Shown in pieces: positions 2,206-36,997 of a DNA stretch of 64,000 nt. The position numbers and the translations under genes are program-made. The notes beneath the pieces were generated by a model. It worked only from the letters and a program-made list of their open reading frames with translations, made no database searches and had not been told where the DNA came from. Each line of letters begins with the position of its first letter. Positions within the stretch are counted from its first letter, which is position 1. Origin of the DNA: Myxococcaceae bacterium (GTDB lineage: Bacteria; Myxococcota; Myxococcia; Myxococcales; Myxococcaceae); assembly GCA_046351675.1 (NCBI GenBank), contig JAXLYB010000002.1, positions 64,001-128,000 of the forward strand, in the 5' to 3' direction.

Positions 2206-2735
2206 GCGAGCCGGTCGTCTTCGTCGCGGGCATGGAAGGGTTGATCAAGGCCCTCGAGCCGCGCGTCGACGCCGCGTTCTGGAAGAGGCTGCGCGAGCGC
2301 GGCTTCGACAAGGACAAGCCGTTGCTCGCGGCGACTCCGGCGAAGACGTGGTTGCTGGTGTTGGAGGCGGGCGTCGAGGCCGTGGGTGGTGACCGCACCG
2401 CGGCGCAGCGGGCGCTCGGCGTCGCGGCCATCGAGGGGTTTCAGCAGACGCTCGTGGGGCGGGCGCTCTTTCCGCTGCTCAAGCTGATTGGGCTCAAGCG
2501 CGGGCTCGAGCGGATCAGCCGCAGCTTCCAGAGCGGCAACGACTTCCTCGACATGAAGCTCGTGTCGTTCGAGCCGGGTGAGGCGCGGCTCGAGGCGCGC
2601 GAGGTGCTCGGCGTGGGCGAGCACTTCGCCGGCATGCTCATCGCGGGGTGCACGGCCGTCGGCGCGCGCGAGGTGTCGTGTGAGACCCGGCCCGCGGGGA
2701 ATGGCGCGCACTTCGTCGTGAAGTGGTCGCGGTAG
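2202..2735 (+). CDS. TIGR02265 / DUF2378 family protein (Myxococcus paralogous family)
   Basis: 177 aa. It is a clear paralog of the gene at 5914..6495 (MSEPVVFVAGMEGLIKALEPRV... versus MNPELQPVVFGHAFEALVKALKDRV...). The start overlaps the upstream stop (ATGA). Confidence 0.7.
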   Translation: MSEPVVFVAGMEGLIKALEPRVDAAFWKRLRERGFDKDKPLLAATPAKTWLLVLEAGVEAVGGDRTAAQRALGVAAIEGFQQTLVGRALFPLLKLIGLKRGLERISRSFQSGNDFLDMKLVSFEPGEARLEAREVLGVGEHFAGMLIAGCTAVGAREVSCETRPAGNGAHFVVKWSR

Positions 2736-2755
2736 CTCGTGGCACACTTCGCCGA

Positions 2756-3097
2756 ATGCGAATCGTTCTCGGGCTGGTAGCGATGTCGTTGGTCGGCTGC
2801 GGTGGGGTGCTCGGCTCGTCGTCGTGTGATTTCCGCGATGGCGGCGCGAATGGGCCTGAGCCGCGGTGCCAGGAGCGCGTGCAGACGCTCGCCGCAGCGG
2901 CGTTCAAGGGTGCGTGCTCGGTGGCGCAGGGCGTGTCGGCCGATGGTGCGTGCCCGCGGACCGGGGCCGTTGGTGGGTGTGAGATCGGCACCCAGGGCGA
3001 CGGCAGCAAGGTGAACGACTGGTACTACGCGCCAAAGACGCGTGACGAAGTGCAGATGCAGTGCACGAAGGACAACGCGAAGTTCCTCGAGCCGTAG
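2756..3097 (+). CDS. small Cys-containing lipoprotein, hypothetical
   Basis: Internal ATG at 2756 gives MRIVLGLVAMSLVGCGG, a type II signal peptide with lipobox LVGC. The ORF 2723..3097 begins upstream, but that stretch lacks signal-peptide character. Confidence 0.5.
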   Translation: MRIVLGLVAMSLVGCGGVLGSSSCDFRDGGANGPEPRCQERVQTLAAAAFKGACSVAQGVSADGACPRTGAVGGCEIGTQGDGSKVNDWYYAPKTRDEVQMQCTKDNAKFLEP

Positions 3098-3108
3098 AGA
3101 ACAAAGAG

Positions 3109-3279
3109 CTCCCTCTCCTCCCGAGGAGGAGAGGGTTGGGGTGAGGAGTGAAGCATCGAGGCGCCAACGGGCTCATGCCTCGAGCGGTGGTGCTTTCCTC
3201 TCTGCTTCAGTTCAGCCGCACTCTGCGCTCCGGGGGTTCACTCCTCACCCCGACCCTCTCCTCTGAAGAGGAGAGGGAG
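3109..3279. repeat. inverted pair of the palindromic repeat family (units 3109..3148 and 3239..3279) flanking a ~90 nt spacer that itself contains a hairpin
   Basis: CTCCCTCTCCTCCCGAGGAGGAGAGGGTTGGGGTGAGGAG ... CACTCCTCACCCCGACCCTCTCCTCTGAAGAGGAGAGGGAG. It lies between the convergent gene ends at 3097 and 3291. Confidence 0.85.
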
Positions 3280-3290
3280 TTCGCAGTTCG

Positions 3291-5828
3291 TCAGCGCCGG
3301 CGCCTTGCGAACAGCGCACCGAGCGCGAGCACGAGCAGCGGCTCCGCGCCAACGCCCGAGCACCCACCACACCCGCCCTTCACCATCGACGGCTGCGTCG
3401 TCGCGCCCGTCTTCCGATACAGCGTGAGCGTCGCCGTCAGCGTCTGCCCCGTGGTCGCCGTCGCGGTCGCGGTGATGACGTTCTTCCCCTCGACCAACGG
3501 CACGGTCGCCGAGAACCCGCCACCACCGAGCAACTCAGCCGACACGTCATTCAACGTCACGCCGATGAGGTCCACGCCCGTCACCGTGCCGAAGATGGTC
3601 ACCGTCTCCGCGTTCACCGTCGACTCATCGGCCGGCTCGACGAACGTGAGCTCCGCGGCCGCGACCTCGTCGATGCCCGGCGTCAGCACCAGGTCGAGCG
3701 CCAACCGCGCATCGGCCGGCACCGTCACCGTCTCGGAGTGCGTGAGGAACCCGGTCTTCTTCACCACCACCAGGTAGTCCGCGGGCACCACCATCACCGG
3801 CGCGTAGTACGCCCCGCCCGCGTCGCTCATCACCGTCGACACCACGGTGCCGCTCGACGCCTCGCGCAGCTCGATGGACACACCCTCGAGGCGAGAGCTG
3901 TCCGCCGAGCTCGACACGAAGCCCGCCACGCCCGCGTTGAACGTCGCGGTGCTCGTCGCGCGGCCGGTGTTGTTCGCGCCATCGACCGCGGTCACCTCGA
4001 TGCTGTTGGTGCCGGGCTTCAGCTGCACCTCGACCTGGAACGCGCCGTTGGTGACCGGCACGTCGGTGCTCGCGCCACCATTGAGCGCCACCTTCACGGT
4101 CGCCACCGCGCCGCGGTCATCTGATGCGGTGCCCTTCAGGTCGATGCGCCCGAGGTCGAGGCTCGCCATGTTCGACGGGAAGCTGATGGCCACCATCGGC
4201 GCCTGCGTGTCGGCCGAGTTGGTCGTCGACAAGCCGACCGAGCCCCACACGGTCGCGTTCGCCGCGACGGTGCGTGACACCTGGTTCGCGACGTAGCCCG
4301 ACTTGGTGACGTTCACCGTGTACGTGCCGGGCGCGAGGTTGAAGAGGTACGCGCCGTCGGCCGCCGTGGTCTGCGTCTGCCCGCCCGCGGTCACCGTCGC
4401 GCCCGTGATGGCGACGTTCATGTTCGTCGGGTCGGCCGCGTTGTACGCGAAGATTTTCCCGCGCAGCACGCCGGTCGCCGCCGAGGCGTTGATCTCCATC
4501 GAGCCCCAGGTCTGCGTGCCCGCCGTCACCGTGCGCGTCACCGAGGTGCCCGCGAAGCCCGACTTGCTCACCGTCGCCGTGTACGAGCCCGGCGCGAGCG
4601 TGAACTGGTACAGGCCGTTAGCACCGGTGGTGACCGTCTGGCTGCCCACCGTCACCGTCGCGCCCGAGACGCGGTTGGCGGAGTTGCCGCCCGTGTAGAT
4701 GGCGCCGATCAAAACGCCGGTGGTGGTGGTCGGCGTCGAGCCGTTCACCAGGTTCATGTACTTCGTCCAGTTCCAGCCGCTGCCCGGGTCGGTGTGACCG
4801 CCGGTGTTGCACTGCGAGGGCACCTCGGCGTGGCCGATGATGTGCGAGCGGTTGCGCGGGATGTTGTGGCGATCGGCGATCCACCGCGTGAGCTTGGCGG
4901 ACTCCGTGTACATCGCGTCGGTGTACCAGGTGGCCGGATCGTTCACGAAACCCTCGTGCTCGATGCCGACCGAACGGCCGTTGTAACACTGCGCGTGCCA
5001 CGCGGTGTTCTTGTGCTCGACCATCTGGGTGATCTGCCCGTCGCTCGAGCGCACGATGTAGTGCGACGACACGTTGGAGTTCGGGTTCTGGAACCACGAC
5101 TTCGTGCCCGCGTAGCTGCCCTGCATGGTGTGAATCAGCACGAACTCGTACGTGCTGCGGCCCGAGGTGAAGTTCGGCGACGCGACCCAGCCGACCGCGC
5201 CCGGGTACTCGACGACGCCGTCACGCCGCGCGCTCGCGACCGGCGCGTGCGTGCGCCACGAGCTCGCCAGCGGCGCCTGCACCACGCCGTTGCCCGTGAA
5301 GCCCTGCTCGAGCGCGAGGAAGACGTCGGCGGCGTAGTCGGTCGAGGCCACCACCGAGTCGAAGCCCGGGTAGTACGAGACCGCGACGTACCAGTCGCCC
5401 AGCTCCTGCGAATCGAGCACCGGCTGGGAGCGCCGCGCGTCGTCGAAGAGCGCGCGCAACACCGCCGCCGCGCCGCGCACGTTGGCCGCCGAGTCGACGC
5501 GCAAGCGCCCTTCGGTCACGCCCGTCAGCGCCGCCGCGCGGCCGAGCGTGTCGACGCCATCGCGCCGGCTGAGCTGCATCACGCCCACGCCGCCCGTGCC
5601 CGACTCGAGGTTGGCGCGCGTGGACAACCGCGTCTCGACCCACGCGATGCTCTTCAGCACCGCGACCGGCACCTGGTACTCGCGCGAGGCCTGGGTGAAG
5701 GCCGTCTCCAGCGCGGTGTTGGTCGACGCCGAAGGGGCTGGAGTGACCGTCGAATCCGCGGGGTCGACCCCGCATGCCGACAGCACGGAGACCAGCGACA
5801 CCAGCACGGCCACGAGTGAGCGCTTCAT
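3291..5828 (-). CDS. multidomain secreted cell-wall hydrolase lipoprotein: SLT-like lytic transglycosylase + N-acetylmuramoyl-L-alanine amidase (amidase_2/PGRP) + CarboxypepD_reg/Ig-like repeats
   Basis: 845 aa. Signal peptide with lipobox (LVSVLSACG). There is an SLT-like motif (ESGTGGVGVMQLS) and amidase_2-like motifs (EFVLIHTMQGSYAGTKSWF...HYIVRSSDGQITQMV...GIEHEGF...HAEVPS...H). Multiple beta-sandwich repeats follow (GATVTVGSQTVTTGANGLYQF, GATVTAGGQTQTTAADGAYLF), and the protein ends with an alanine-rich C-terminal anchor-like tail. Confidence 0.7.
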   Translation of the reverse strand: MKRSLVAVLVSLVSVLSACGVDPADSTVTPAPSASTNTALETAFTQASREYQVPVAVLKSIAWVETRLSTRANLESGTGGVGVMQLSRRDGVDTLGRAAALTGVTEGRLRVDSAANVRGAAAVLRALFDDARRSQPVLDSQELGDWYVAVSYYPGFDSVVASTDYAADVFLALEQGFTGNGVVQAPLASSWRTHAPVASARRDGVVEYPGAVGWVASPNFTSGRSTYEFVLIHTMQGSYAGTKSWFQNPNSNVSSHYIVRSSDGQITQMVEHKNTAWHAQCYNGRSVGIEHEGFVNDPATWYTDAMYTESAKLTRWIADRHNIPRNRSHIIGHAEVPSQCNTGGHTDPGSGWNWTKYMNLVNGSTPTTTTGVLIGAIYTGGNSANRVSGATVTVGSQTVTTGANGLYQFTLAPGSYTATVSKSGFAGTSVTRTVTAGTQTWGSMEINASAATGVLRGKIFAYNAADPTNMNVAITGATVTAGGQTQTTAADGAYLFNLAPGTYTVNVTKSGYVANQVSRTVAANATVWGSVGLSTTNSADTQAPMVAISFPSNMASLDLGRIDLKGTASDDRGAVATVKVALNGGASTDVPVTNGAFQVEVQLKPGTNSIEVTAVDGANNTGRATSTATFNAGVAGFVSSSADSSRLEGVSIELREASSGTVVSTVMSDAGGAYYAPVMVVPADYLVVVKKTGFLTHSETVTVPADARLALDLVLTPGIDEVAAAELTFVEPADESTVNAETVTIFGTVTGVDLIGVTLNDVSAELLGGGGFSATVPLVEGKNVITATATATTGQTLTATLTLYRKTGATTQPSMVKGGCGGCSGVGAEPLLVLALGALFARRRR

Positions 5829-5913
5829 GGGCGGCGAAGGTAGGGCAGGCCTCGCACGGGTGGATCACCGCCCCCGGGAACAGTGTCGCGCGAAGGTGAC
5901 AGTCCCTTTTGGC

Positions 5914-6495
5914 CTACGACCAACTCACCTCGAACGTCACGTCCTGCCTCGTGAAGTCCGACGCGCTCAGCTTCACCGTGCCCGTCGCGCCGAGCGTGGT
6001 GAGCACCGCTTCGAGGAGGCCCTGGCGGTACTCCGCGATGAACGAGGTGCGGTCGGTCGTGTACGGGAGGTAGCGCTCGTTGGTGAAGGTGCGAATGCGC
6101 ACTGACTTCGGCCCCAGGTCGGCGATGTCGGCCTCGAGGTAGTTGGTCGCCTGCTTGAAGTTGCGGCCCATGCGCTGGAGCGTGCGCTTGACGCCGATGA
6201 GCTTCGCCACGGCGAGCACGGCCAGACCGAGCGGCGTCTGCACGAAGCCTTCCATGAAGAGGTGGCCCAACTGCCGCGTGCGCTCGGCGGGAGGGAGCCG
6301 CGGCAACAACTTCTCTCCCGTCAGCCGAATCACCTCGACCCACGTGTCCATCGGGTACGCGGCCTGCACCTTCGCGAGGTCGACGCCGAGCTTCTTGAGC
6401 TCGCCGCGCAGCTCGGGCGTCACGCGGTCCTTGAGCGCCTTCACCAGCGCCTCGAAGGCGTGACCGAAGACGACGGGCTGGAGCTCGGGGTTCAC
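5914..6495 (-). CDS. TIGR02265 / DUF2378 family protein (second paralog)
   Basis: 193 aa. It is similar throughout to 2202..2735 (for example GFVQTPLGLAVLAVAKLIGVKRTLQRMGRNFKQATNYLEADI versus GFQQTLVGRALFPLLKLIGLKRGLERISRSFQSGNDFLDMKL). Confidence 0.7.
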   Translation of the reverse strand: MNPELQPVVFGHAFEALVKALKDRVTPELRGELKKLGVDLAKVQAAYPMDTWVEVIRLTGEKLLPRLPPAERTRQLGHLFMEGFVQTPLGLAVLAVAKLIGVKRTLQRMGRNFKQATNYLEADIADLGPKSVRIRTFTNERYLPYTTDRTSFIAEYRQGLLEAVLTTLGATGTVKLSASDFTRQDVTFEVSWS

Positions 6496-24857: not shown

Positions 24858-26726
24858 GTGGCTGGCGTGCGTCATTCCCGACTCATCTCGCTGTGCCTCT
24901 CGCTCGCCGCGCTCGGTGGGTGCGGCCCCGTCACCCCGCCGCCCGAGCCGCCGCACTTCCTGTGGTCGGCCGACCCGACGAGCGTCGACAACCCGTTCCC
25001 TGATCAACGCATCGTCGCCGACACCTCGCAGCGGCCGCGCTGGTACCAGACGTTCCTCCCGAGCAAGGCCGTCACCGCGCGCTCGGCGGCGTACTTCAAC
25101 AAGGTCGGCGCGCAGTTCTCCCGCGAGGTCGAGGGCACCGGCGCGTTCGGCGGCACGCTGCTGCCCGCGAGTGAGGCGCTCGACCCGGACACCGTGCAGG
25201 GCTCCATCGCGCGCCTGAAGAAGAACGCGAGCGGCGGCTGGGACGTGCTCGAGCGCGCCGTGCCCGTCGACCACCTGCGCGACGTCTTCGCGCGCCGTGG
25301 CATGCCGCTGCCCGAGGGCTCACCGGAATTCCTGTCGACCCGCCCCACCGTGCCGCTGCCCGAAGACACCGACGGCCTGCTGGTGGTGCTCGCCGGCCCA
25401 AAGACGAAGAGCGGCGTCGCGTTCGGGCGCGCGCAGGCGTGGACCGACACGAAGCCCGACGTGAGCGCAGTCGCCCAGGCGCTCGGCGTCACGCCCGAGA
25501 GCGTGCTCTTCACGCTGCCGCAGCACGCCCCGAAGGTGACCGCCGTGCCGCGCGCGCTCGCTGCGTGGGCCAACGCGCACCCGCCGGCCGCGACGATTCC
25601 ACCGCACGCGGTGCTCGCCGACGGCAACGCCACGCGCCCCGTCGGCAAGTGGACGCCCGCCGACGCCGACTGGTCCGAGCTGCTGCGCTGGCTCGAGCGT
25701 CACCCGTTCAGCCAACCCGCCGCGCACGTGGGCCAGGTCTTCATCGGAGAGCTCGCGGCGCGCGACCTGCGCGACGGCAGCACCATCAGCCGCGCGTGGA
25801 CGGCGGACCCCTCGCAGGCGCCCGTGGTGCCGCTGCGCTTCGTGCTCACGCTGCCATCGGGGCCGAAGCCCGCGGGCGGGTGGCCGGTGGTGATGGGCGC
25901 GCACGGCGTCAACGCGCGCAACACGCCGAAGAGCTCGGTGCTCGACGCGTACTGCCTCGAGTGGGCCGAGCCGCTCGCCGCGAAGGGCCTGGGCTGCATC
26001 GGCATCGACGCGCCGGAGCACGGCAGCCGCGGCAACTTCACCAACTTCTTCAGCATGGACGACCTGCCCGCGATTCGGGACCGGCTGCGCGAGATGACGT
26101 TCGACCTCTTGCAGGTGGAGTCGGCGCTGCAGACCCTCGACGTCGACGGCGATGGCCAGCCCGACGTGGCGCCGCGCGTGCGCTACTTCGGCAACTCGCT
26201 GGGGGCCATCATGGGCGGCAACTTCGTACCGGTGTCGAACCGCGTCTCGACCGCGGTGCTCAACGTGCCCGGCGGGGGGCTGTCGAACGTGGTGATGAGC
26301 CAGGAGCTGCAGGACCTCATCGGTCTCCTCATCGTCGCGCAGACCGACCTGGCCTTCGATTCACCCGAGTACGTCGCGTCGTTCCCGCTCTTCCGCGCGG
26401 TGGCGCAGCCGCTGTTCGACCCGGGCGACCCCATCACCCAGGCGCAGGCCGCGCGGCCGGAGATGGCGGTGCTGCTGCAGGAAGGCGTGGGTGACCGCAC
26501 CATTCCCAACGACACGAGCCGGGACCTCGCGGCGGCGTTGAAGCTCTCGGTGCCTCCGACCGATGCGACGCACGCGTTCGTCGAGGTGGACCCGACGTGG
26601 TTCCGCCCCGCGGCGCAGCTGCAGGACTACAACGCGCACGGCGTCATCTGGGACTTCGCGCCGGTCAGGGAAGAAGCGATGACCTTCCTCGGCTCGGACG
26701 GCGCGACGTTGTTGATGCCGCGTTGA
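24858..26726 (+). CDS. lipoprotein with C-terminal alpha/beta-hydrolase-like domain
   Basis: Lipobox (LSLAALGGCG). The GxSxG nucleophile elbow is YFGNSLGAIMGG. 622 aa. Confidence 0.5.
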   Translation: MAGVRHSRLISLCLSLAALGGCGPVTPPPEPPHFLWSADPTSVDNPFPDQRIVADTSQRPRWYQTFLPSKAVTARSAAYFNKVGAQFSREVEGTGAFGGTLLPASEALDPDTVQGSIARLKKNASGGWDVLERAVPVDHLRDVFARRGMPLPEGSPEFLSTRPTVPLPEDTDGLLVVLAGPKTKSGVAFGRAQAWTDTKPDVSAVAQALGVTPESVLFTLPQHAPKVTAVPRALAAWANAHPPAATIPPHAVLADGNATRPVGKWTPADADWSELLRWLERHPFSQPAAHVGQVFIGELAARDLRDGSTISRAWTADPSQAPVVPLRFVLTLPSGPKPAGGWPVVMGAHGVNARNTPKSSVLDAYCLEWAEPLAAKGLGCIGIDAPEHGSRGNFTNFFSMDDLPAIRDRLREMTFDLLQVESALQTLDVDGDGQPDVAPRVRYFGNSLGAIMGGNFVPVSNRVSTAVLNVPGGGLSNVVMSQELQDLIGLLIVAQTDLAFDSPEYVASFPLFRAVAQPLFDPGDPITQAQAARPEMAVLLQEGVGDRTIPNDTSRDLAAALKLSVPPTDATHAFVEVDPTWFRPAAQLQDYNAHGVIWDFAPVREEAMTFLGSDGATLLMPR

Positions 26727-27534
26727 TCAGCGTGAGGCCGTAGCGAAATTGTCCCTCGGGTGTGCGGGCGTCGGGCGGGCCGGTGAGCACCGCTTCGAGC
26801 GCGCCGGGGTGACCGCCGCGTCGCGCGAGCTGAAGGAAGAGGACTCCGCACAACGCCGCGATTCGCTGCCGCACGCGCAGGAATCGCTCGGGCAGTGTGG
26901 TGAGGGGCGCTCCGTCGTAGGCCGAGAGCAGGTGCGCGGTGTCTGCGTCATCGAGCCGGAAGAAGAGCGAGAGCGTCGCGAGGTCGTGCAGCGGCTCGTT
27001 CGGGCCTGCCGAGTCCCAGTCGACGAAGAGCACGCGGTCGCCGGCGTCGAGGAGGTTGGTGGGGTTCAGGTCGTTGTGGCTCAGCACCGGCGACTGATCA
27101 GACGGCGGCAGCGGGTGGTCGAGCACGGCGCGCACGGTGTCGATGGCCCACGCGGGCACAGGGAAGTCAGAGAGGCTGGCCCAGGTCTCAGCGAGGAAGG
27201 CGTGCGCGTCGCGCGTCGTCGCGTCCGGTGGAATCGGCAGTGCATGCAAGCGGCGGACGGTCGCGCCGAGCTGCGTGAGCGTGGCCGCACGCGTGGCGGG
27301 CGCGGCGAGGCGCGGGAAGAGCGGGTGCGGTGCCACGTATTCGGTGATGACCGTGCGTCCGCTCTCGTCGGCCTTCACGAAGGTTGGGGCGAGGCCTGCG
27401 CTCGCGGCGGCTCGAAGAATTTCCACGCGGGCTCGCCAGGCGTCGAGCGGCTCGTCAGCGGAGGTGGTCTTGAGCATGCAGAGGCGGCCGTTGAGTTCGA
27501 CTCGGCTGACTTGCGCTCCGGACAGACCGGGCAT
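26665..27534 (-). CDS. aminoglycoside/choline-kinase-like phosphotransferase (APH family)
   Basis: Brenner motif (LSHNDLNPTNLL) and FVDWDSAG. The start is placed at MPGLSGAQV (cat 27532..27534). The longer ORF to 27594 has an N-terminal extension (MSPLSPSPPEEERVGVRR) translated from a palindromic repeat and is rejected. Confidence 0.6.
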   Translation of the reverse strand: MPGLSGAQVSRVELNGRLCMLKTTSADEPLDAWRARVEILRAAASAGLAPTFVKADESGRTVITEYVAPHPLFPRLAAPATRAATLTQLGATVRRLHALPIPPDATTRDAHAFLAETWASLSDFPVPAWAIDTVRAVLDHPLPPSDQSPVLSHNDLNPTNLLDAGDRVLFVDWDSAGPNEPLHDLATLSLFFRLDDADTAHLLSAYDGAPLTTLPERFLRVRQRIAALCGVLFLQLARRGGHPGALEAVLTGPPDARTPEGQFRYGLTLINAASTTSRRPSRGRSSLLP

Positions 27535-27540
27535 CGGGTT

Positions 27541-27584
27541 TCTCCTCACCCCGACCCTCTCCTCCTCGGGAGGAGAGGGAGACA
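27541..27584. repeat. palindromic repeat unit in the 56-nt gap between co-directional genes
   Basis: CTCCTCACCCCGACCCTCTCCTCCTCGGGAGGAGAGGGAG. Confidence 0.85.
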
Positions 27585-27590
27585 GGGGGC

Positions 27591-28067
27591 TCACTCGGGT
27601 CGCAGGTACATCACCCTGACTGGCCCGTCTGGTGTCGCAACGACCAACACGCGCTCGAGCACCTTGCCGCTCGCGTCAGTGGCCATCACGTTGAAGCTCC
27701 ACACCAGCGAGGTCGCGCCGGGCTCACCGCCAGGTCCGCCATCGACCGACATCACGCGCACGGTGACGCCGGGCTTCACGCTCAGCGCCTTCACCTCGAC
27801 GCGCACCGGCGACTTGCCCGCGAAGCGCGCACACGAGACGTCGGCGGTCTCGATGGCCAGCTCCCAATCGGTCGTCAGGCTCGAGATCTTCTCCACGCGC
27901 CGCGTCGGCGTGCCGCTCGTCGTCGCGGGAATCAGCTCGCCCACCGCCAGCGCCTTGCCCGCGAAGGTCCACGTGAAGGGCAGCGTCGGCGTCGAAGTCG
28001 AAGAGCGCATGGGGCACCCCGCAAGAAGGAGAAGTCCACCGGCCGCGAGTGCGACGCGCGCGCTCAC
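27591..28067 (-). CDS. small lipoprotein, hypothetical; GTG start overlapping the upstream stop (GTGA)
   Basis: GTG (cac 28065..28067) gives M/VSARVALAAGGLLLLAGCP with lipobox LLAGC. There is no in-frame ATG upstream of the signal peptide. The same frame continues as the meaningless ORF 27591..28577. Confidence 0.5.
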   Translation of the reverse strand: MSARVALAAGGLLLLAGCPMRSSTSTPTLPFTWTFAGKALAVGELIPATTSGTPTRRVEKISSLTTDWELAIETADVSCARFAGKSPVRVEVKALSVKPGVTVRVMSVDGGPGGEPGATSLVWSFNVMATDASGKVLERVLVVATPDGPVRVMYLRPE

Positions 28068-30334
28068 TTGTTGATGACCACCGTGGCGTCGGTGCCGTTG
28101 GTGTTGCCCGACGCGTCGGTGAGCGCGCTCATCGGCACGGTGACCGTGTACGCGCCCGTTTGCGTCATCGTGTCGTCGCTGATCCACGCCAGCTCGACGT
28201 CGCTCCAGGTGAAGCGCACGTTGAGGTTGGTGCCCGACGGCGCGCGCACCACGAAGTTGTGTGACGCCCCGGCCGCGGGGTGCGCGTGGGCTCCGAGCGT
28301 CGGGCTGGCATCGGAATCCCACAGGCGGAAGTGGTCGGTCACGTCGTCGATGCCGCCGGTGTACACGCTCGGGTTCGGCGGGAAGCGCGCCTCGAGCACG
28401 AGCCGGTCGTTGCTCAGCCGCCCGGTGACCGCGACGGCGAGGCTGGCGGTGACGGTGAACGCGCGGCTGGTGAGCTCGTACGTGCTCTTCGCGCCGCCCT
28501 GCTGCGCCGTGCCGCGGGCGACGAAGCGGTATTCCCCGAGCGGCAAATCGGGCACCGCCTCGAACTTCGCGGTCCACTGGTGGGTGCGCACGGTCGCCTG
28601 GTCGTCGCTCTTGAAGGTCGGCGTCGCGGCGTAGCGCAGGAGCACCTCGGGCCCGTTCACCACCGGCCGCGTGGCGCTCGCCATCAGCGGTACGAACGCG
28701 CCGTTCACCTTCTGCTCGACCGAGACCCTGGGGAGCCCGAGGCCCGGGTCGCCGCCCTCGAACTGGAAGACGAAGGTGCGCAGGCGCTCTTGATCAACCG
28801 GCTCGGTCACCACCTGCGGCGCGCGCATCGAGTCGTCCGGCACGCGCGGCGTCGGGTCGGTCAGCGGCGCCGCGTCGACCGCGGGCTGCGTCTCGTCGTA
28901 CGTCGCCGCGAAGGTCGACAGCTCGCTCAAGAGATACGGGCCGAACTTCCACCCGAAGGCCGACACCGTGGGCTCGTACCCGCCGCGCAGCCAGTCATCG
29001 GCTTCGAGCAGGTAGCCGAAGTGATCTTGCGAGTAGCCGACCGGCAGCGTGGTCTTCGCGCCGAGGCCCGCGAGCGCCTCTTCCATCTTGCGCGTCAGCC
29101 CCGTGCCCGGCTCGCCGGGCAGCGTGAAGAACAAGAGGTCGTCACCGAGCCGCACCATCGAGAGCGAGGTGTGGAAGGGACGCTTGCGCTCGAGCGGCAG
29201 GCACAGCACCTGCGACGGCGTCGACACCACTTCACCGCACGCGCCCGGACCGCCCGCCTGGCACTGGAGCCCGCCCGACTCGGGGAATTCGCCCGGCGCG
29301 TACCCGATGGCCTCGCGGCTCACCAACACGCCGCGCTCACGGAAGTCGAGCCGCACGCCGGCGGGCGCGTTGCCCGGCGCAGCGGCCTTCCACGCCTGCT
29401 CGACGACGAGCGCCGCGACGCGCCCCTGCCGCTCGATGTTCTGCAGGTCGCGGTGACCGAAGGGGCTGCCGCGCGGTGACACGTCGCCCGCCGCGCCCTG
29501 CACGTACTGCACGGGGATGCCGAGGCGGTCGCTCGCGTAGAGCTCCATGCCGCCCGGGCCGTCGGTGGACTGGAGCGTGTTGTCGCTGCCCAGCACCGTG
29601 CCGTGCATCGCGTAGTGCACCAGCGCGGTGAGCGGCTTGATGGGCGCGCCGCTGCCGTCGACCACGTCGAAGCGAATCACGGTGACCGCGGTGTCGCGGA
29701 AGTCGTGTCCGTAGATGGGGTCGTTCTCGCAGCGGCGGTCGTTGTTGAAGTCACTGCCGTCGGCGCTGCCGATGCCGACGCTCACCGGCTGCAGCGAGGC
29801 GAAGGCCCGCGTGATGGCGTCGACGATGGCGGTGGTGAGGCGCGCGTCCTGCTCGGCGTCGTAGTGGTCCATCACCAGCGCGACGAAGTCGGTGCCGTTC
29901 GGGTCGCCGAGGTGCGCGGGCGGCATGAAGCGCGCGGGGCCGGCGTGGGTGTGCGTCGAGTAGAGCACCACGTTCGCGGTCTCCCCGGTCGCGGCGAGCG
30001 CGGCGCGCACGCGGGTGCGCAGCGTGGGCGAGACGATGGTGAGGTCGAGGCGCACGAAGGCGACGCGCGAGATGCCGTTGCTCAGCGCCAGCGCGCGCGC
30101 GGTCGGCTCGACGTGCATGCCCTGGCTCGCGGGGAACTGAATCGCCCACGGCGAGCCGGGGTCGGAGCCGGGGCGCGTGCGGAGGTAACCACCCATCGGC
30201 ATGCCGACTGGCGAGTCGAGCAGGGTGGTGGCGGTGCCGGCCTGCAGCGGGCCGGGCGGAGGCGGCGGCGCGGGCTTCGGTGGAGGACAGGCGCTGATCA
30301 GCGCGGCAACGGACAGAACGAGGAGACGACGCAT
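28064..30334 (-). CDS. neutral/alkaline ceramidase-family lipoprotein
   Basis: Lipobox (LVLSVAALISACP). VAFVRLDLTIVS...NVVLYSTHTHAGP matches the neutral ceramidase N-terminal catalytic region (VVFVNTDLGMI...LAATHTHSGP). 756 aa, with a C-terminal beta-sandwich-like tail. Confidence 0.6.
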   Translation of the reverse strand: MRRLLVLSVAALISACPPPKPAPPPPPGPLQAGTATTLLDSPVGMPMGGYLRTRPGSDPGSPWAIQFPASQGMHVEPTARALALSNGISRVAFVRLDLTIVSPTLRTRVRAALAATGETANVVLYSTHTHAGPARFMPPAHLGDPNGTDFVALVMDHYDAEQDARLTTAIVDAITRAFASLQPVSVGIGSADGSDFNNDRRCENDPIYGHDFRDTAVTVIRFDVVDGSGAPIKPLTALVHYAMHGTVLGSDNTLQSTDGPGGMELYASDRLGIPVQYVQGAAGDVSPRGSPFGHRDLQNIERQGRVAALVVEQAWKAAAPGNAPAGVRLDFRERGVLVSREAIGYAPGEFPESGGLQCQAGGPGACGEVVSTPSQVLCLPLERKRPFHTSLSMVRLGDDLLFFTLPGEPGTGLTRKMEEALAGLGAKTTLPVGYSQDHFGYLLEADDWLRGGYEPTVSAFGWKFGPYLLSELSTFAATYDETQPAVDAAPLTDPTPRVPDDSMRAPQVVTEPVDQERLRTFVFQFEGGDPGLGLPRVSVEQKVNGAFVPLMASATRPVVNGPEVLLRYAATPTFKSDDQATVRTHQWTAKFEAVPDLPLGEYRFVARGTAQQGGAKSTYELTSRAFTVTASLAVAVTGRLSNDRLVLEARFPPNPSVYTGGIDDVTDHFRLWDSDASPTLGAHAHPAAGASHNFVVRAPSGTNLNVRFTWSDVELAWISDDTMTQTGAYTVTVPMSALTDASGNTNGTDATVVINK

Positions 30335-30354: not shown

Positions 30355-30459
30355 CTCCCTCTCCTCCCGAGGAGGAGAGGGTCGGGGTGAGGAGAAAAGC
30401 GTCGAAGCGCCACCCCTCTCGTTCCGGCGCAACCCTCTCCTCCCGAGGAGGAGAGGGAG
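30355..30459. repeat. full palindromic repeat unit plus a second partial unit filling the divergent promoter region between 30334 (-) and 30472 (+)
   Basis: CTCCCTCTCCTCCCGAGGAGGAGAGGGTCGGGGTGAGGAG ... AGCGTCGAAGCGCC ... CCCTCTCCTCCCGAGGAGGAGAGGGAG. Confidence 0.85.
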
Positions 30460-30471
30460 TGTTGGAGTACG

Positions 30472-32223
30472 GTGCTCGCGATGGACGTCGCGCGCATCAG
30501 GCTCAACGACACGTGCAACCTCGCGTGCGCGTTCTGCAATGCCCGCGCTGACGTCGAGACACCTTCGTTCGCCGCGGCCGGCGCGGTGAAGCAGCGCATC
30601 GACGCCGCGCTGCGCTCGGGCGCCAAACAGCTCGTGCTCACCGGTGGAGAGCCGACGCTCCGCCGCGACCTGCCCGACATCGTGCGCTACTGCGCGCAGA
30701 ACGACCGCCGCGTCACGCTCGAGACCAACGCGCTGCTCATCGACGGCGCGCTCGCTGCACGACTGAAGGCGGCTGGCCTCGCGCACGCGCTGGTGCACCC
30801 GGTGACCGCGCAGACCCGCGATGGACTCCGCGCGCTGCACGACGCGGGCGTCACGCTCGAGGCGGTGCTTGCCCTCACGCGCACGTCAGCGCCGAGCGTC
30901 GCGAGTTGGCCGGCGGAGGTGCGCGCGATCGGCGTGCCGCTCGCTGGCCTGGTCGCCGTGATCCCCGTCGAGAGCCCCGCGCCCGGCGAAGTGCTCGACC
31001 TGCGCGATGCCGGTCGCCTGGTCGAACAGCTCGACACGGCCGCGCGCCACGAGGGCCTGCCGTTGCGCCTGGCCGACGGCGTCGCGCTCCCGCCCTGCCA
31101 GGTCGACGCGCCCGCACGGCTCTCGCACCTCTTCCACCTCTCGCGCGGCGGCGCACAACGCGACGACTGCGCTCGCCGGCCCGGCTGCACGGACTGCGTG
31201 GTCGCCTCGATGTGTCCCGGTCTCCCGCTCGCGGCGCCCGCGGCCCAGGAGCGCCCGCTCCACGGCGAGGCGCTGCGCCGGCGGCTCTCGAGCATCAGCA
31301 GCTTCGCCGAGCAGATCGACCGCGAACTGGTGACGCGCACGCAGCGCAACCGCGGCCAGTGGGCGGTGCGCGAGCACATCGTGCGCATCAACTTCCGCTG
31401 CAACCAGGCGTGCCGCTTCTGCTTCGTGTCGACGCACCTGCCGAGCGCCGAAGACCGCGCCATCGAGGCGGCGATTCTCGACGTGGCGCGCGAGGGCGGC
31501 GTGGTGACGCTCTCGGGCGGAGAGCCGACGCTCAACCCGAAGCTCGAGCAGTGGGTGCGCCTCGCGAAGTCGAGTGGCGCGAGCCTCGTCGAGCTGCAGA
31601 CCAACGCCACGAAGCTGGGTGACCGTGCGCTGACCGAGCGGCTCGTCGCGGCGGGCGTCGACGTGGCGTTCGTCTCGCTGCACGGCTCGACCGCGGCGGT
31701 GAGCGACGTGGTCACGGGAGCGCCGGGCACGTTCGACGAGACGGTGCGTGGCCTCGACGAACTGCACCTCACGAGCGTGAAGCTGCTGATCAACTTCGTG
31801 CTCTGCGAGGCGAACTACCGCGACTTCCCCGCGTTCATCGAGCTGCTCGGCGCGCGCTGGCCCCGCGCCACGGTGAACGTCAGCTTCGTCGCGCCCTCGA
31901 CCGACGTGGTGCCGCGCGAGACCTCGCTCATTCCCCGCTACACCGACGCGATGCCCTTCCTCGCCGACGGGCTGCGGGCGACCGAGAAGCTGGGCCTCAC
32001 GGTGGTGGGCTTCGACTCGATGTGCGGGCTGCCGCTGTGTCTCGTGCCGACCGACGTCTCGAAGTTCTTCACGCTCGGCGACGCGCCGGATTCCGAGGGC
32101 GAGTTCGAGAAGCCCGAGACGTGCCGCGCGTGCTCACTGCAGCGCGAGTGCTTCGGCCTGCGGCGCGGCTACGCCGAGCTGTACGGCACGGGCGAGCTGC
32201 GCGCGGTCACCACGCAATCCTGA
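30472..32223 (+). CDS. double radical-SAM protein: two complete radical SAM domains, each followed by a Cys-rich SPASM/twitch-like segment
   Basis: Module 1 has CNLACAFCN (CxxxCxxC) and LTGGEPTL, then CARRPGCTDCVVASMC. Module 2 has CNQACRFCF and LSGGEPTLNP, then C-terminal CGLPLC...CRACSLQREC. The start is GTG 30472 or ATG 30481. Confidence 0.75.
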   Translation: MLAMDVARIRLNDTCNLACAFCNARADVETPSFAAAGAVKQRIDAALRSGAKQLVLTGGEPTLRRDLPDIVRYCAQNDRRVTLETNALLIDGALAARLKAAGLAHALVHPVTAQTRDGLRALHDAGVTLEAVLALTRTSAPSVASWPAEVRAIGVPLAGLVAVIPVESPAPGEVLDLRDAGRLVEQLDTAARHEGLPLRLADGVALPPCQVDAPARLSHLFHLSRGGAQRDDCARRPGCTDCVVASMCPGLPLAAPAAQERPLHGEALRRRLSSISSFAEQIDRELVTRTQRNRGQWAVREHIVRINFRCNQACRFCFVSTHLPSAEDRAIEAAILDVAREGGVVTLSGGEPTLNPKLEQWVRLAKSSGASLVELQTNATKLGDRALTERLVAAGVDVAFVSLHGSTAAVSDVVTGAPGTFDETVRGLDELHLTSVKLLINFVLCEANYRDFPAFIELLGARWPRATVNVSFVAPSTDVVPRETSLIPRYTDAMPFLADGLRATEKLGLTVVGFDSMCGLPLCLVPTDVSKFFTLGDAPDSEGEFEKPETCRACSLQRECFGLRRGYAELYGTGELRAVTTQS

Positions 32224-33939: not shown

Positions 33940-34980
33940 GTGAGCGCCGTCCCCCCGCCCGGCCTGGTGTTGCCCGACGCCTGGTTCGTCGCGTGCACGA
34001 GCGACGAACTCCGCACCGCGCCCAAAGCAGTCACCATCCAGGGCCGCCCACTCGTCCTCTTCCGCAACACCAACGGGCAACCCACCGCCCTCGCCGACCG
34101 CTGCCCGCACCGCAACGTCCCGCTCTCGATGGGCCGCGTGGTGCGCGGCGAGCTCGAGTGCGCGTACCACGGCTGGAAGTTCGACCACGCCGGCGCCTGC
34201 ACCTCCGTGCCCGGCCTGATGACGCAAGACCCGAGCCTCAAGAGCCGCTGCGCCGAAGCACACGCCACGCGCGAGCTCGACGGCTTCATCTGGGTCTACT
34301 CGTCCCCCGCACGCGAACCCAAAGACGAGCCCTTCCGCTTCCCGCACCTCGACACGCGCGGCTACACGACGGTGCGCCGTCGCTTCGTGGTCGAGGCCGG
34401 CCTGCACGCCGCGCTCGAGAACACGCTCGACGTGCCGCACACCGCGTACCTCCACGGCGGCCTCTTCCGCACCGAGGAAAAGAAGAACGTCATCGACGTG
34501 GTGGTCCAACGCCACGCGCGTCACGCCGAGGCGCGCTTCATCGGCGAACCCGCACCACGAGGACTCGCCGGCCTCGTCCTCGCCCCGCGCGGAGGCGTGG
34601 TGGAGCACGTCGACCGCTTCCTCCTGCCGTGCATCGCGCAGGTCGAGTACCGCCTCGGCGAGCGCGCACACCTGCTCGCGACGACCGCCTTCACGCCCGC
34701 CAGCGACGACGAGACGCACGTGTTCGCGGTGGTGACGTTGCGGCTCCCGGTGCCGGGCTGGCTGGTGCGCCCCTTCATCGCGCCCATCGCGACCCGCATC
34801 TTCGCGCAGGACCGCGTGATGCTCCGGCGCCAGCGCGAGCAGGTGAAGCGCTTCGGCGGCGAGAAGTACACCAGCACCGAGCTCGACGTGCTCGGGCCGC
34901 AAATCACGCTGCTGCTCAAGCACGCCGCCAACGGCGAAGACGCCACCGCGCACGAGCACCGCCTGCAGATGAGGACCTGA
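33940..34980 (+). CDS. Rieske [2Fe-2S] non-heme iron oxygenase, alpha-subunit-like (class IA/KshA- or phthalate-dioxygenase-like)
   Basis: The Rieske motif is CPHRNVPLS...CAYHGWKF. The mononuclear Fe motif is NTLDVPHTAYLHGG (D-x2-H-x4-H). GTG start at 33940. The stop overlaps the next gene (TGATCATG). Confidence 0.7.
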   Translation: MSAVPPPGLVLPDAWFVACTSDELRTAPKAVTIQGRPLVLFRNTNGQPTALADRCPHRNVPLSMGRVVRGELECAYHGWKFDHAGACTSVPGLMTQDPSLKSRCAEAHATRELDGFIWVYSSPAREPKDEPFRFPHLDTRGYTTVRRRFVVEAGLHAALENTLDVPHTAYLHGGLFRTEEKKNVIDVVVQRHARHAEARFIGEPAPRGLAGLVLAPRGGVVEHVDRFLLPCIAQVEYRLGERAHLLATTAFTPASDDETHVFAVVTLRLPVPGWLVRPFIAPIATRIFAQDRVMLRRQREQVKRFGGEKYTSTELDVLGPQITLLLKHAANGEDATAHEHRLQMRT

Positions 34981-34982
34981 TC

Positions 34983-35630
34983 ATGCCGCCGCTCATCACC
35001 CTGCTCTGCCTCGCCCACGCGCTCGAAGGTGTGCCCGCCACCGGCAAGAGCCCCGCCGAGTTCGCGCCGAAGGGCTGGGCCGTCGAATCGGAGCTGACCG
35101 CCGAGCTGAACGGCGACGCGCTGCCCGACCGCGTGGTGGTGTTGCTCCAGGTCGCGCACGGAGACGACGAGCGTCACCGCGCCTTGCTCTGGCTCCACGG
35201 CACGAAGGACGGCGGCTTCGAGCTCATCGACAGCAACGTGGGCCTGCTCGCGCCGCTCAACGGCCTCGGCATGAAGGGCGGCACCGCGGAGCCCGAGCTC
35301 GAGCTCAACAAGAACGTGCTCAACGTCAGCAACTGGGGTGGCTCGGCCGACAGCTACGGCTCGACGCACCGCTTTCGCTTCGAGAAGGGCGTGGTGCGCC
35401 TCATCGGCGTCGACAAGAGCAACATGAACACGCTCACCATGGAGGAGAGCGGCACCAGCACCAACCTCGTCACCGGCGCGAGCGAGTCGTACTGGAACCC
35501 GCCGCAAGACGACGGCACCGGCCAGCCCACCGGCAAGAAGGGGTGGAAGAAGAAGACGAAGGTGGCCGTCGGTGCGCCCCAACGCCTCCGCGACGTCGTG
35601 GAATACGACCGCGACGCGCCCGTGCGGTAG
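34983..35630 (+). CDS. hypothetical secreted protein
   Basis: ATG 34983 gives MPPLITLLCLAHALEGVPA, which is signal-like. 215 aa, with a Lys-rich C-terminal region. It is tightly coupled to the Rieske gene. Confidence 0.5.
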   Translation: MPPLITLLCLAHALEGVPATGKSPAEFAPKGWAVESELTAELNGDALPDRVVVLLQVAHGDDERHRALLWLHGTKDGGFELIDSNVGLLAPLNGLGMKGGTAEPELELNKNVLNVSNWGGSADSYGSTHRFRFEKGVVRLIGVDKSNMNTLTMEESGTSTNLVTGASESYWNPPQDDGTGQPTGKKGWKKKTKVAVGAPQRLRDVVEYDRDAPVR

Positions 35631-35639
35631 AACGAGCAC

Positions 35640-36407
35640 GTGAAGTTCGTCTGCCCGGCGTGCGAGCGCCTCCTCGAGCTCGAGCAGTTTCGCTTCGACC
35701 CGCCCGCGCTGGTGGTGAGTTGCTCGCGGTGTGGCGTCGAGTCGCGCCTCACGCCCGGCGCTGGTCGCACCGAAGCTGCTGCGCCCCCGGCCGCGCTCCC
35801 CGACACCCGCTTTCCGCCGCGCGTCTCGCTCGAGTCTGCCGAGGGCGCGAGCAACGTGGTGGTGCTGAAGACCGCCTCGCACGACGCCGTGCGCCGCGCC
35901 GCCGAGGCCGCTGCGAACCCGTTCGCGATCCCCGATGGGCTGTGCCCCAAGTGCCTCGTGCGCCGCAACGGAGACGCCGAGTGCCGCAACTGCGGGCTGC
36001 GCTTCGACGGCTTCGACGAGAACGCGATGCTCCCGCCGAAGGTGCTGCGCGACGACTGGGTGGGCTTGCTCGGCGAGTGGGGCAACGAGCAGCGGCACGC
36101 GCTCTTCCGCCGCAAGGCGCAGCAGCTCGACGCGCTCGCCGCGGTCGGCCGGCTCTACCGCCTGCGCCAGGCGCACTTCCCCGAAGACCCGCTCGCCGCC
36201 GCCGCGCTCTCGGACATCTTGCGCATCGCCGCGGTGCCGATGGGGCTGCCGCGCACCGACGAGGGCTCCGAGCAGCGCCGCCGCACCATCGTGCTCACGG
36301 CCGCCATCGTGGTGGTCATCTTGCTCCTGGGGCTGCTCGTGAAGGTGCTGTTCGGCGGGCCGCCGCCGAACAGCGTGCTTCCGCCGCCGCCCGTACCGCC
36401 GGGGTGA
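35640..36407 (+). CDS. zinc-ribbon protein with C-terminal transmembrane segment
   Basis: GTG start. MKFVCPACERLLE...CSRCG and CPKCLVRRNGDAECRNCG form two CxxC...CxxC ribbons. The TM helix is IVLTAAIVVVILLLGLLVKVLF, followed by a Pro-rich tail. Confidence 0.5.
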   Translation: MKFVCPACERLLELEQFRFDPPALVVSCSRCGVESRLTPGAGRTEAAAPPAALPDTRFPPRVSLESAEGASNVVVLKTASHDAVRRAAEAAANPFAIPDGLCPKCLVRRNGDAECRNCGLRFDGFDENAMLPPKVLRDDWVGLLGEWGNEQRHALFRRKAQQLDALAAVGRLYRLRQAHFPEDPLAAAALSDILRIAAVPMGLPRTDEGSEQRRRTIVLTAAIVVVILLLGLLVKVLFGGPPPNSVLPPPPVPPG

Positions 36408-36997
36408 GCGCGCTCGACGACAGGGCGTGGCTCGTCATCGCCGACCGCTTCACCGAGGCCGGCAACCCGCTGGGCGAGTACATCGTGCTCGAGCTGCGAC
36501 ATGGCGAGGACATGCCCGTGCGCGAGACACGGCGTCAGCGCCAACTGGTGCGCGAGTGGAACAGCAGCTTCGCGCCATGGTCGAAGTTCGTCGCCTGGTC
36601 GACCGCGCGACTGACGCTGCGATTCAAGGACAGCGCCACGGTGCTCGCACACGCGCGTGAGCTGAAGGACCTCGCCGTGCCGCTCGAGCTGGAGATCGGC
36701 GACGGCAGCCGCTCGCTGCAACGCTGCGTCTTCGACGAGGGCTTCACCCGCCTCGCGTGGACCGAGGAGACGAGCAGCGTCGAAAACCAGAACCACTCGC
36801 CCGGCATGGACGAGACCTGGCACCACTGGACCGCCGTGAAGGTGTGGCGCGTCGCCGACGGAGTGCTGCTCTACGCCGGCGGAGTCGAAGGCCGCGCGCG
36901 CGTCGAGCTGCGGCCGGACGGGGTGTGGGCGCTCGAGAACGGACGCGCCCAGCACCTTCATCCCCCTCTCCCCCCGTGGGGGAGAGGGTTGGGGTGA
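36404..36997 (+). CDS. TIGR02996 repeat-companion-domain protein (LV.AD...E.G.P.GE.I.L motif)
   Basis: The GTG start overlaps the upstream stop (GTGA). The N-terminus LDDRAWLVIADRFTEAGNPLGEYIVLELRHGE matches the TIGR02996 signature (pRLVYADWLEE.GDP.RAEFIRLQ). The last ~10 codons and the TGA come from a palindromic repeat. Confidence 0.5.
   Translation: MSALDDRAWLVIADRFTEAGNPLGEYIVLELRHGEDMPVRETRRQRQLVREWNSSFAPWSKFVAWSTARLTLRFKDSATVLAHARELKDLAVPLELEIGDGSRSLQRCVFDEGFTRLAWTEETSSVENQNHSPGMDETWHHWTAVKVWRVADGVLLYAGGVEGRARVELRPDGVWALENGRAQHLHPPLPPWGRGLG

Follow-up and report, generated by a model that had tools for sequence, protein, structure and literature searches.

Very few of the radical S-adenosylmethionine (SAM) enzymes characterised to date combine two catalytic domains in one chain; the standard example is FbiC, the fused CofG-CofH that acts as FO synthase in F420 biosynthesis. 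The domains of FbiC represent two different families and are not known to carry twitch or SPASM auxiliary clusters. Both radical SAM domains reside in a single polypeptide and generate two separate 5′-deoxyadenosyl radicals in one overall reaction (PMC11917521). Within HXS, HxsD is a binding partner of HxsC, and the exported protein HxsA is matured jointly by HxsB, HxsC and HxsD; 99.7% of HXS belongs to Pseudomonadota (PMC13128918). Here, we describe a double radical SAM protein from a Myxococcaceae bacterium, encoded in a stretch of 64,000 nt (contig JAXLYB010000002.1, positions 64,001 to 128,000; the window in the following). The protein is a cytoplasmic enzyme of two tandem paralogous radical SAM modules, and we hold with moderate confidence that it is best explained as an Hxs-related two-site maturase whose substrate is encoded elsewhere.

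The gene is real and intact. Its identical NCBI entry (P0001, "MAG: radical SAM protein [Myxococcaceae bacterium]", where MAG stands for metagenome-assembled genome) has 580 aa, a length that points to ATG 30481 as the start codon, and a G+C content at third codon positions (GC3) of ~0.91, vs 0.70 for overall GC, identifies the open reading frame (ORF) as a genuine coding frame. Radical SAM enzymes are recognised by a CX3CX2C motif whose third Cys follows an aromatic residue, by a GGE motif and by a (βα)6 core; all of these are present twice over, and the protein belongs to this superfamily. Pfam Radical_SAM (PF04055) matched in two separate stretches, with a whole-protein E-value of 4.9e-35 and 121.6 bits (gathering threshold 29.5 bits), so the two-module observation is not a matter of chance. 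In the translation, the motifs of module 1 read CNLACAFCN (residues 15–23) and LTGGEPTL (56–63), followed by a Cys run at residues 233–248 (CARRPGCTDCVVASMC), and those of module 2 read CNQACRFCF (310–318) and LSGGEPTLNP (347–356), followed by CGLPLC (518–523) and CRACSLQREC (551–560). All motifs quoted in a preliminary description of this DNA were thus recovered, and its claim of two complete modules, each with a Cys-rich auxiliary-cluster segment, is upheld by these motifs, by the twofold PF04055 match and by the invariance described below. The first Cys run has to be narrowed down: only C239, C242 and C248, together with C209 further upstream, are invariant, and C233 is not. An AlphaFold2 model computed from a 24-sequence alignment (mean pLDDT 86.4, pTM 0.73) places successive (βα)6 units at residues 6–193 and 297–507, with a Cys-rich segment of less regular structure after each of them, and folds the linker between the modules into two short helices, then strands leading to module 2.

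The two halves resemble each other along their entire length. BLASTP of residues 1–293 against residues 294–583 returned an end-to-end alignment with 29% identity (E 2e-11), which spans the CX3CX2C and GGEP motifs, a TN motif after β3 and the auxiliary cysteines, and which pairs LPPC209 with LPLC523 and C239-x2-C242-x5-C248 with C551-x2-C554-x5-C560. Given this similarity and the identical auxiliary-Cys spacing, the protein is an ancient internal tandem duplication of a complete radical SAM-plus-auxiliary-cluster module, and not two different maturases that became fused, as had been suggested initially. The layout had also been described as SPASM/twitch-like. SPASM domains are characterized by 7–8 Cys in the arrangement CX9-15GX4C ... 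CX2CX5CX3C ... C, two auxiliary [4Fe-4S] clusters and a Pfam match, whereas a twitch domain holds one auxiliary Fe-S cluster with 3–4 Cys ligands in a short β-hairpin/helix domain after the radical SAM core. Each module here has the four-Cys pattern C...CX2CX5C only, without the CX3C extension, i.e., it does not show the seven-Cys SPASM signature, and Pfam SPASM (PF13186) had no match in the protein at E ≤ 1. The segments resemble the twitch or HxsC type in their pattern, with four invariant Cys and matching spacing in both modules, and may be twitch domains; no dedicated model matched the protein.

Both modules are conserved among homologs. In an alignment of 24 orthologs that are 48–65% identical to the window protein (alignment A1), the invariant positions comprise both CX3CX2C triads, both GGEP motifs, four auxiliary Cys per module, C445, a motif in the linker, and C518 (within SMCG), a further Cys of the module 2 auxiliary segment. 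The 120 best homologs in the database include 119 full-length proteins, and 119 of these 119 have the CX3CX2C, GGEP and CX2CX5C motifs twice each. Hence module 2 is not degenerate, a point on which the preliminary description had made its proposal of a duplication depend. Against the other 23 sequences of the alignment, the window protein has an average identity of 45% in module 1 and 58% in module 2, indicating that both halves are under constraint. The window protein and two Archangium MAG proteins lack ~16 or more residues after β4 of module 1 (A1 columns ~148–176), where all Polyangia orthologs have a segment with the consensus HLPAWGxxxDxITRDxGGF; module 1 (window 30472-31350) has thus been remodelled in this lineage specifically. 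Such a deletion, the lower conservation of the N-terminal half and the occurrence of the additional invariant C445 and C518 in module 2 only would fit a protein with a single catalytic module, in which the other one has become a pseudo-enzyme with a structural or regulatory role, able to bind clusters or SAM but not to turn over, as is the case for some duplicated enzymes. We consider this unlikely, given that in both modules the Cys of the clusters, the GGEP motif and the auxiliary Cys are invariant in A1 and present in the 119 homologs, and given the pLDDT > 90 with which module 1 was modelled.

Comparison with curated families placed the protein outside all of them, since no NCBIfam model reached its cutoff with the whole protein or with either half. 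Among 18,950 curated models, the C-terminal half came closest to HxsC4 (85.2 bits vs 500) and HxsC (73.5 vs 267.9), and the whole protein scored 109.1 and 91.6 bits, respectively, again below these cutoffs. Module 2 aligns to HxsC almost end to end (model positions 32–288 of 292), and the two share a C-terminal CxxC-containing second-cluster segment; as in HXS, two radical SAM activities are combined (TIGR03977, NF038332; PMC13128918). The N-terminal half was closest to MoaA (57–65 bits vs cutoffs of 231–325), followed by AhbD (55 vs 500). For the whole protein, the MoaA models TIGR02666/TIGR02668 yielded 98–117 bits vs cutoffs of 284 and 325, and AhbD (106 vs 500), NirJ (92 vs 515) and PqqE (77 vs 381) likewise stayed far below. 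The C terminus of MoaA carries a three-Cys cluster motif, CX2CX13C, and a GG tail, unlike the four-Cys CX2CX5C arrangement found here. No anSME model was among the best 25 NCBIfam matches listed, and anSME appeared as a weak PDB profile match (E 3.5e-4). Assignment to a known single-function family, which had been raised as an alternative with anaerobic sulfatase-maturase-like or cofactor-biosynthesis enzymes in mind, thus fails for MoaA, AhbD, NirJ, HxsC, PqqE and others. At most, the protein works like a fused, duplicated HxsC-type enzyme.

The best PDB sequence match was BlsE, a cytosylglucuronate decarboxylase (E 4.5e-17), followed by 8wm2 ("Fe-S radical SAM"), SkfB, MoaA and GDGT-MAS, and BlsE was also the top Foldseek match. 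Enzymes of the twitch/SPASM subgroup, then, are the best matches in both sequence and structure, and BlsE, MoaA, SkfB, anSME, BtrN and PqqE share with each module the (βα)6 core and the C-terminal Cys-rich auxiliary domain. They differ in being single-module enzymes, each match covering about half of the query (query-normalised Foldseek TM-score ~0.3). The PADLOC models for defence systems were tried as well and gave generic similarity to viperin, itself a radical SAM protein, only.

Each auxiliary segment would hold an auxiliary Fe-S cluster, adding up to as many as four clusters per polypeptide, and both modules, which appear functional, probably cleave SAM and are catalytically active. The protein would then be a covalently linked pseudo-dimer producing two 5′-deoxyadenosyl radicals, which could initiate two steps by H-abstraction on one substrate in the manner of FbiC joining CofG and CofH. 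C445 and C518 may supply an H-atom donor, or a contact to substrate or metal. FbiC is the best functional analogy for such a two-site enzyme, but there is no specific sequence relationship: the CofG and CofH models were not among the best 25 NCBIfam matches listed, and the modules here are duplicates with auxiliary Cys segments.

The double radical SAM family is conserved in Myxococcota, mainly in Polyangia. A word-indexed search recovered at least 120 full-length homologs, 117 of them at 47–65% identity and three being shorter (59–65%) or identical entries; those that have a name are listed as "radical SAM protein" or under generic MoaA/NifB/PqqE-type names. When 185,579 species genomes were scanned by pattern, 196 proved to encode a relative, mostly genomes of Myxococcota. 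The best 80 belong for the most part to this phylum by a wide margin (Polyangium, Chondromyces, Minicystis, Byssovorax, Nannocystaceae, Sandaracinaceae, Paraliomyxa), with a few MAGs labelled Archangium, Binatia or other. An exhaustive HMMER search of 1.84 billion representatives at 50% identity returned 376 proteins at E ≤ 1e-30. In the best 149 of these 376, the number of CX3CX2C motifs is two in 97 proteins, one in 38 (some of them fragments), three in eight and four in a single protein of 1318 aa (P0171). Relatives with three and four motifs show that the radical SAM-plus-auxiliary-cluster unit is repeated one to four times in the superfamily. The three-module relatives include those at 2864-5989 of locus L055 and at 1947-4895 of locus L063 (Minicystis rosea), with CX3CX2C modules ~320 aa apart; for the latter, three radical SAM stretches were confirmed with NCBIfam. 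A neighbour-joining tree was computed for the two-module proteins of the loci retrieved. In it, the central genes of the loci form one clade that includes the window protein, to which neither second copies nor Gfo/Idh/MocA-fused copies nor three-module proteins belong. The window gene is therefore an ortholog of the main family. A literature search on tandem, double or two-domain radical SAM proteins and on myxobacterial examples yielded no description of the family; only FbiC, Tes (two CxxxCxxC motifs) and HXS surfaced, FbiC being the one characterised enzyme with two radical SAM domains among them. The architecture, initially judged uncommon, is indeed rare among characterised enzymes, but not in nature, as hundreds of Myxococcota proteins share it.

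To characterize the gene contexts, genes at 82 non-redundant related loci were called by GC3 and clustered by BLASTP. At least one further radical SAM homolog, with one to four modules, lay within ~8 kb at 42 of the 69 loci for which the central gene was called, amounting to 76 extra radical SAM genes in ~1.04 Mb, a density that we judge to be far above any plausible background. One clade consists of MAGs that bear the label Binatia or delta-proteobacterium; here, either a single-module radical SAM gene (cluster c1) or a gene of cluster c5 comes before the ortholog. The c5 proteins (~750 aa) combine an HxsD-like N-terminal domain, an HxsC4-like radical SAM domain and a C-terminal plant-type 2Fe-2S ferredoxin; in the three proteins run against NCBIfam, the N-terminal domains scored 40.7–41.5 bits vs a cutoff of 41 for NF038315. 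One locus of this kind, L018, encodes a standalone HxsD-like protein, an HxsC4-like radical SAM protein and the double radical SAM protein in this order, which mirrors the order D-B-C of HXS. These loci with HxsD-like, HxsC4-like and ferredoxin components may represent an Hxs-related system outside Pseudomonadota. A membrane protein encoded after the ortholog in L020, considered as a downstream partner within this clade, was not conserved.

The closeness of module 2 to HxsC4 and HxsC, together with the HxsD-like partners in one clade, is what favours a protein or peptide handled in an Hxs-like manner as the substrate, which we regard as somewhat short of an even chance. There are clear differences to HXS. 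Both modules are on one chain and are paralogous to each other, instead of forming a pair of HxsB plus HxsC; the family belongs to Myxococcota, and its conservation looks vertical, unlike the pattern of a mobile defence island.

Other contexts point in other directions. In the operon shared by L011 and L086, the double radical SAM gene is accompanied by a second one, by a gene for a ~655-aa SPASM/N-twitch radical SAM protein and by one for a ~910-aa Cys-motif protein without Pfam match, and this gene set recurs, with varying order and strand, in L014, L026, L055, L062, L063 and L066. Proteins with such Cys motifs (~900–950 aa; SGCPF...GCTFCLD and GYPxCC...SHHxCSPxC) were seen in L066 (9945-12689, minus strand), L063 (13771-16464, minus strand), L011 (13676-16516), L014, L055 and L062, always within multi-radical SAM operons and without a Pfam or NCBIfam match; they may be divergent B12/radical SAM-like enzymes, partners or substrates. 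The ortholog of Polyangium spp. has a divergently oriented paralog as its direct neighbour, in which two modules are joined to a GFO_IDH_MocA sugar-dehydrogenase domain. This paralog is the first gene of an operon that also encodes a GT2 glycosyltransferase and a UDP-GlcNAc 2-epimerase, and an NDP-sugar epimerase/dehydratase is encoded nearby. Paralogs of ~1000 aa that consist of two radical SAM modules and a Gfo/Idh/MocA NAD-binding domain occur in L002 (6931-9951, minus strand), L008, L009, L010 and L028 (10569-13556, minus strand). GH1, GH113 and DUF2961 genes lie downstream in Minicystis, and a UbiA prenyltransferase gene adjoins the ortholog in L079. The remaining neighbour clusters are heterogeneous (B12-radical SAM, acyl-CoA dehydrogenase, GT2, epimerases, glycoside hydrolases, UbiA, CoA ligase), and the recurrent clusters c2 (~910 aa), c4, c8, c14 and c16 matched no Pfam or NCBIfam family; taken together, the neighbour clusters did not converge on one pathway.

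The sugar- and lipid-related neighbours suggest that the protein could instead be a small-molecule tailoring enzyme, whose modules act one after the other in radical steps (dehydrogenation, decarboxylation, epimerisation or C-C coupling), with an intermediate of nucleotide-sugar, glycan, cofactor or lipid type as the substrate. BlsE as the first match in both PDB searches would agree with this, as would the lack of a precursor peptide and of an RRE domain, and so would an ortholog that is strongly conserved, mostly single-copy and placed in variable contexts, much like a housekeeping gene. However, each sugar or lipid context recurs in a few loci at most, the curated families closest to module 2 mature proteins, HxsD-like partners are present in one clade, and the likeness to BlsE reflects the shared radical SAM core, for which PFL-AE, SkfB and anSME score equally. 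We see such a tailoring function as possible, and a sugar, nucleotide or other small molecule as a substrate nearly as likely as an Hxs-like protein or peptide, if still rather doubtful by itself. Equally tentative is a broader proposal, in which the family is the two-module form of a hitherto undescribed modular radical SAM class of Myxococcota. Its enzymes would consist of one to four copies of an HxsC-like unit of ~300–320 aa, in some cases with HxsD-like, ferredoxin or Gfo/Idh/MocA domains attached, and would be encoded in radical SAM-dense islands; they could work as an assembly line in which a single macromolecule, either a protein or a glycan, undergoes one radical reaction after another.

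Within the window, the double radical SAM gene is a lone gene, and its neighbours give no functional clue. A ceramidase-like lipoprotein gene lies upstream and a YfbK-type VWA lipoprotein gene directly downstream (Table 1), the latter at the short distance reported earlier, which measured from the likely start codon is 57 nt and not about 58 nt. A Rieske protein gene follows; what had been called a Rieske-oxygenase operon is this single gene and, further downstream, unrelated small genes encoding a small lipoprotein and Zn-ribbon-like proteins, then a TonB-dependent receptor. The order ceramidase-like, radical SAM, VWA is common only to the Archangium MAG loci L001 and L006 (in the latter as far as its contig end). 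In tblastn searches against more than 80 related loci with the window neighbours, which also included small lipoprotein, phospholipase-like and kinase-like genes, the ceramidase-like, VWA and c17 genes were found only in Archangium MAGs and five other neighbours nowhere, with no match to the Rieske gene at any related locus; within ±8 kb, none of the ceramidase-like, VWA and c17 genes was present in the ~75 other loci. The window neighbours are therefore a case of lineage-specific synteny and not conserved partners.

These data bear on the idea that the enzyme matures a neighbour, mainly the VWA lipoprotein, which had been named as a candidate substrate, or alternatively the ceramidase-like lipoprotein, by analogy to HxsB/C acting on exported HxsA. 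The VWA gene is co-directional and follows after a short gap without a convincing terminator between the genes, the same gene order is seen in L001, and HXS provides a precedent for radical SAM maturation of an exported protein. Yet the synteny is limited to the two closest relatives (59–63% identity), and the gap in L001 measures 634 nt and holds an ORF on the opposite strand. As the radical SAM family is highly conserved in lineages without a VWA neighbour, the conserved substrate must be something else, and we regard maturation of a neighbour as very improbable.

Table 1. Coordinates of the double radical SAM gene, its conserved elements and neighbours in the window, and of Hxs-related genes at other loci (coordinates of the respective locus)
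Feature	Position	Strand	Remarks
Double radical SAM gene	30472..32223	+	583 aa from GTG 30472; 580 aa from ATG 30481
Module 1 cluster motif C15-x3-C19-x2-C22 (CNLACAFC)	30514..30537	+	invariant in orthologs
Module 1 SAM-binding motif GGEP (G58-P61)	30643..30654	+	invariant
Module 1 auxiliary-cluster segment: C209 (PPC), C239-x2-C242-x5-C248, then PG	31096..31215	+	four invariant Cys
Inter-module linker, residues ~249-300	31216..31371	+	invariant R269, R270, L272, Q281, R284, E285
Module 2 cluster motif C310-x3-C314-x2-C317 (CNQACRFC)	31399..31422	+	within invariant FCFVSTHLP (alignment)
Module 2 SAM-binding motif GGEP (G349-P352)	31516..31527	+	invariant
C445	31804..31806	+	additional invariant Cys of module 2 core, no module 1 counterpart (alignment)
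Module 2 auxiliary-cluster segment: C523, C551-x2-C554-x5-C560	32023..32151	+	match the four Cys of module 1
Ceramidase-like lipoprotein gene	28064..30334	-	Pfam Ceramidase_alk N-terminal domain, E 6.9e-14; upstream, divergent
YfbK-type VWA lipoprotein gene	probable start ATG 32281	+	57-nt gap downstream of radical SAM gene; vWF_A + VWA + YfbK_C
Rieske protein gene	33940..34980		best model SdmA 4beta-methylsterol monooxygenase, weak: 66 bits vs cutoff 600
c5 gene, L020	5772-7970		directly upstream of ortholog
c5 gene, L036	5688-8000		directly upstream of ortholog
c5 gene, L051	5647-7923		directly upstream of ortholog
c5 gene, L058	384-2669		directly upstream of ortholog
c5 gene, L059	872-3094		directly upstream of ortholog
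Gene for fusion protein of the c5 type, L037	5043-7247	-	opposite strand to ortholog
Standalone HxsD-like ORF, 84 aa, L018	4739-4990		NF038315, 67.6 bits vs cutoff 41

Additionally, several other elements of the window were noted. A 23-nt palindrome, CTCTCCTCCCGAGGAGGAGAGGG, has four perfect copies (0 expected) at 3113-3135, 27555-27577, 30359-30381 and 30435-30457, and a fifth copy with 3 mismatches at 36966-36988. Two copies lie inside the 138 nt that separate the radical SAM gene from the divergent ceramidase-like gene. The palindrome looks like a repetitive extragenic palindromic (REP)-like intergenic repeat, and its copies account for the recurring "SPSPPEEERVG" strings in translations of spurious ORFs. 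A scan for promoters and terminators remained at chance level, and an Rfam scan of the whole window had no matches. Further upstream, a VolA/Pla-1-like phospholipase (24858-26726, plus strand; 70 bits, below cutoff) and an APH/choline-kinase-like phosphotransferase (26665-27594, minus strand) are encoded; together with the ceramidase-like gene, these lipid-hydrolase-type genes upstream of the radical SAM gene may constitute a lipid-scavenging cluster unrelated to it. The C-terminal part (~36410-36997) of an ORF at 35543..36997 on the plus strand reads DDRAWLVIADRFTEAGNPLGEYIVLELRHG, which may resemble the TIGR02996 "repeat-companion" domain, common in Myxococcota and Planctomycetes.

Several observations weigh against an Hxs-related maturase. 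Scores of 73–109 bits for HxsC and HxsC4 are far under 268 and 500, the N-terminal half is nearest to MoaA and AhbD and not to HxsB, and the HxsD-like context is confined to one clade, with the other contexts mixed or sugar-related. In the six-frame translation of the 64-kb window, neither an HxsD-like domain nor an HxS-repeat stretch was found, and a second radical SAM protein is absent from the window, too; lacking HxsA-like HxS-repeat protein, HxsD and second radical SAM protein, the locus is not a member of HXS. In contrast to RiPP-maturing radical SAM enzymes with an RRE, i.e., those acting on peptides that ribosomes synthesize and that are modified post-translationally, the double radical SAM protein has no N-terminal RRE/PqqD-like or other RRE-type leader-binding domain, for which the 14 residues that precede the first cluster motif leave no room. 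An adjacent precursor gene is missing as well, as stated in the preliminary description: no conserved peptide gene lies upstream or downstream in the window or in L001, small ORFs upstream in L001 that were considered as precursor peptides are absent from the window, and clustering of 2,833 short ORFs (20–130 aa) located outside large genes at the 82 loci revealed no conserved small ORF beside the gene, giving only antisense shadows of the radical SAM genes and low-complexity groups. Finally, we infer the cluster content and activity of each module from sequence, and the deletion of ~16 residues could mean that the function of module 1 is altered in the window lineage.

The double radical SAM family may thus stand for unexplored radical chemistry, to which its apparently two SAM-cleaving and two auxiliary clusters per chain, its conservation throughout a class of myxobacteria, its three- and four-module relatives and its Hxs-type partners in one clade point. 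Proteins or peptides could be matured by it in several steps, in relation to the recently described HXS antiphage system, and equally it could belong to a new sugar or cofactor pathway. With ~600 aa, solubility and many orthologs, including those of cultured Polyangium, Chondromyces, Minicystis and Paraliomyxa strains, the family constitutes a defined and testable target, and its architecture and the radical SAM-dense islands of Polyangia are of interest to radical SAM enzymologists.

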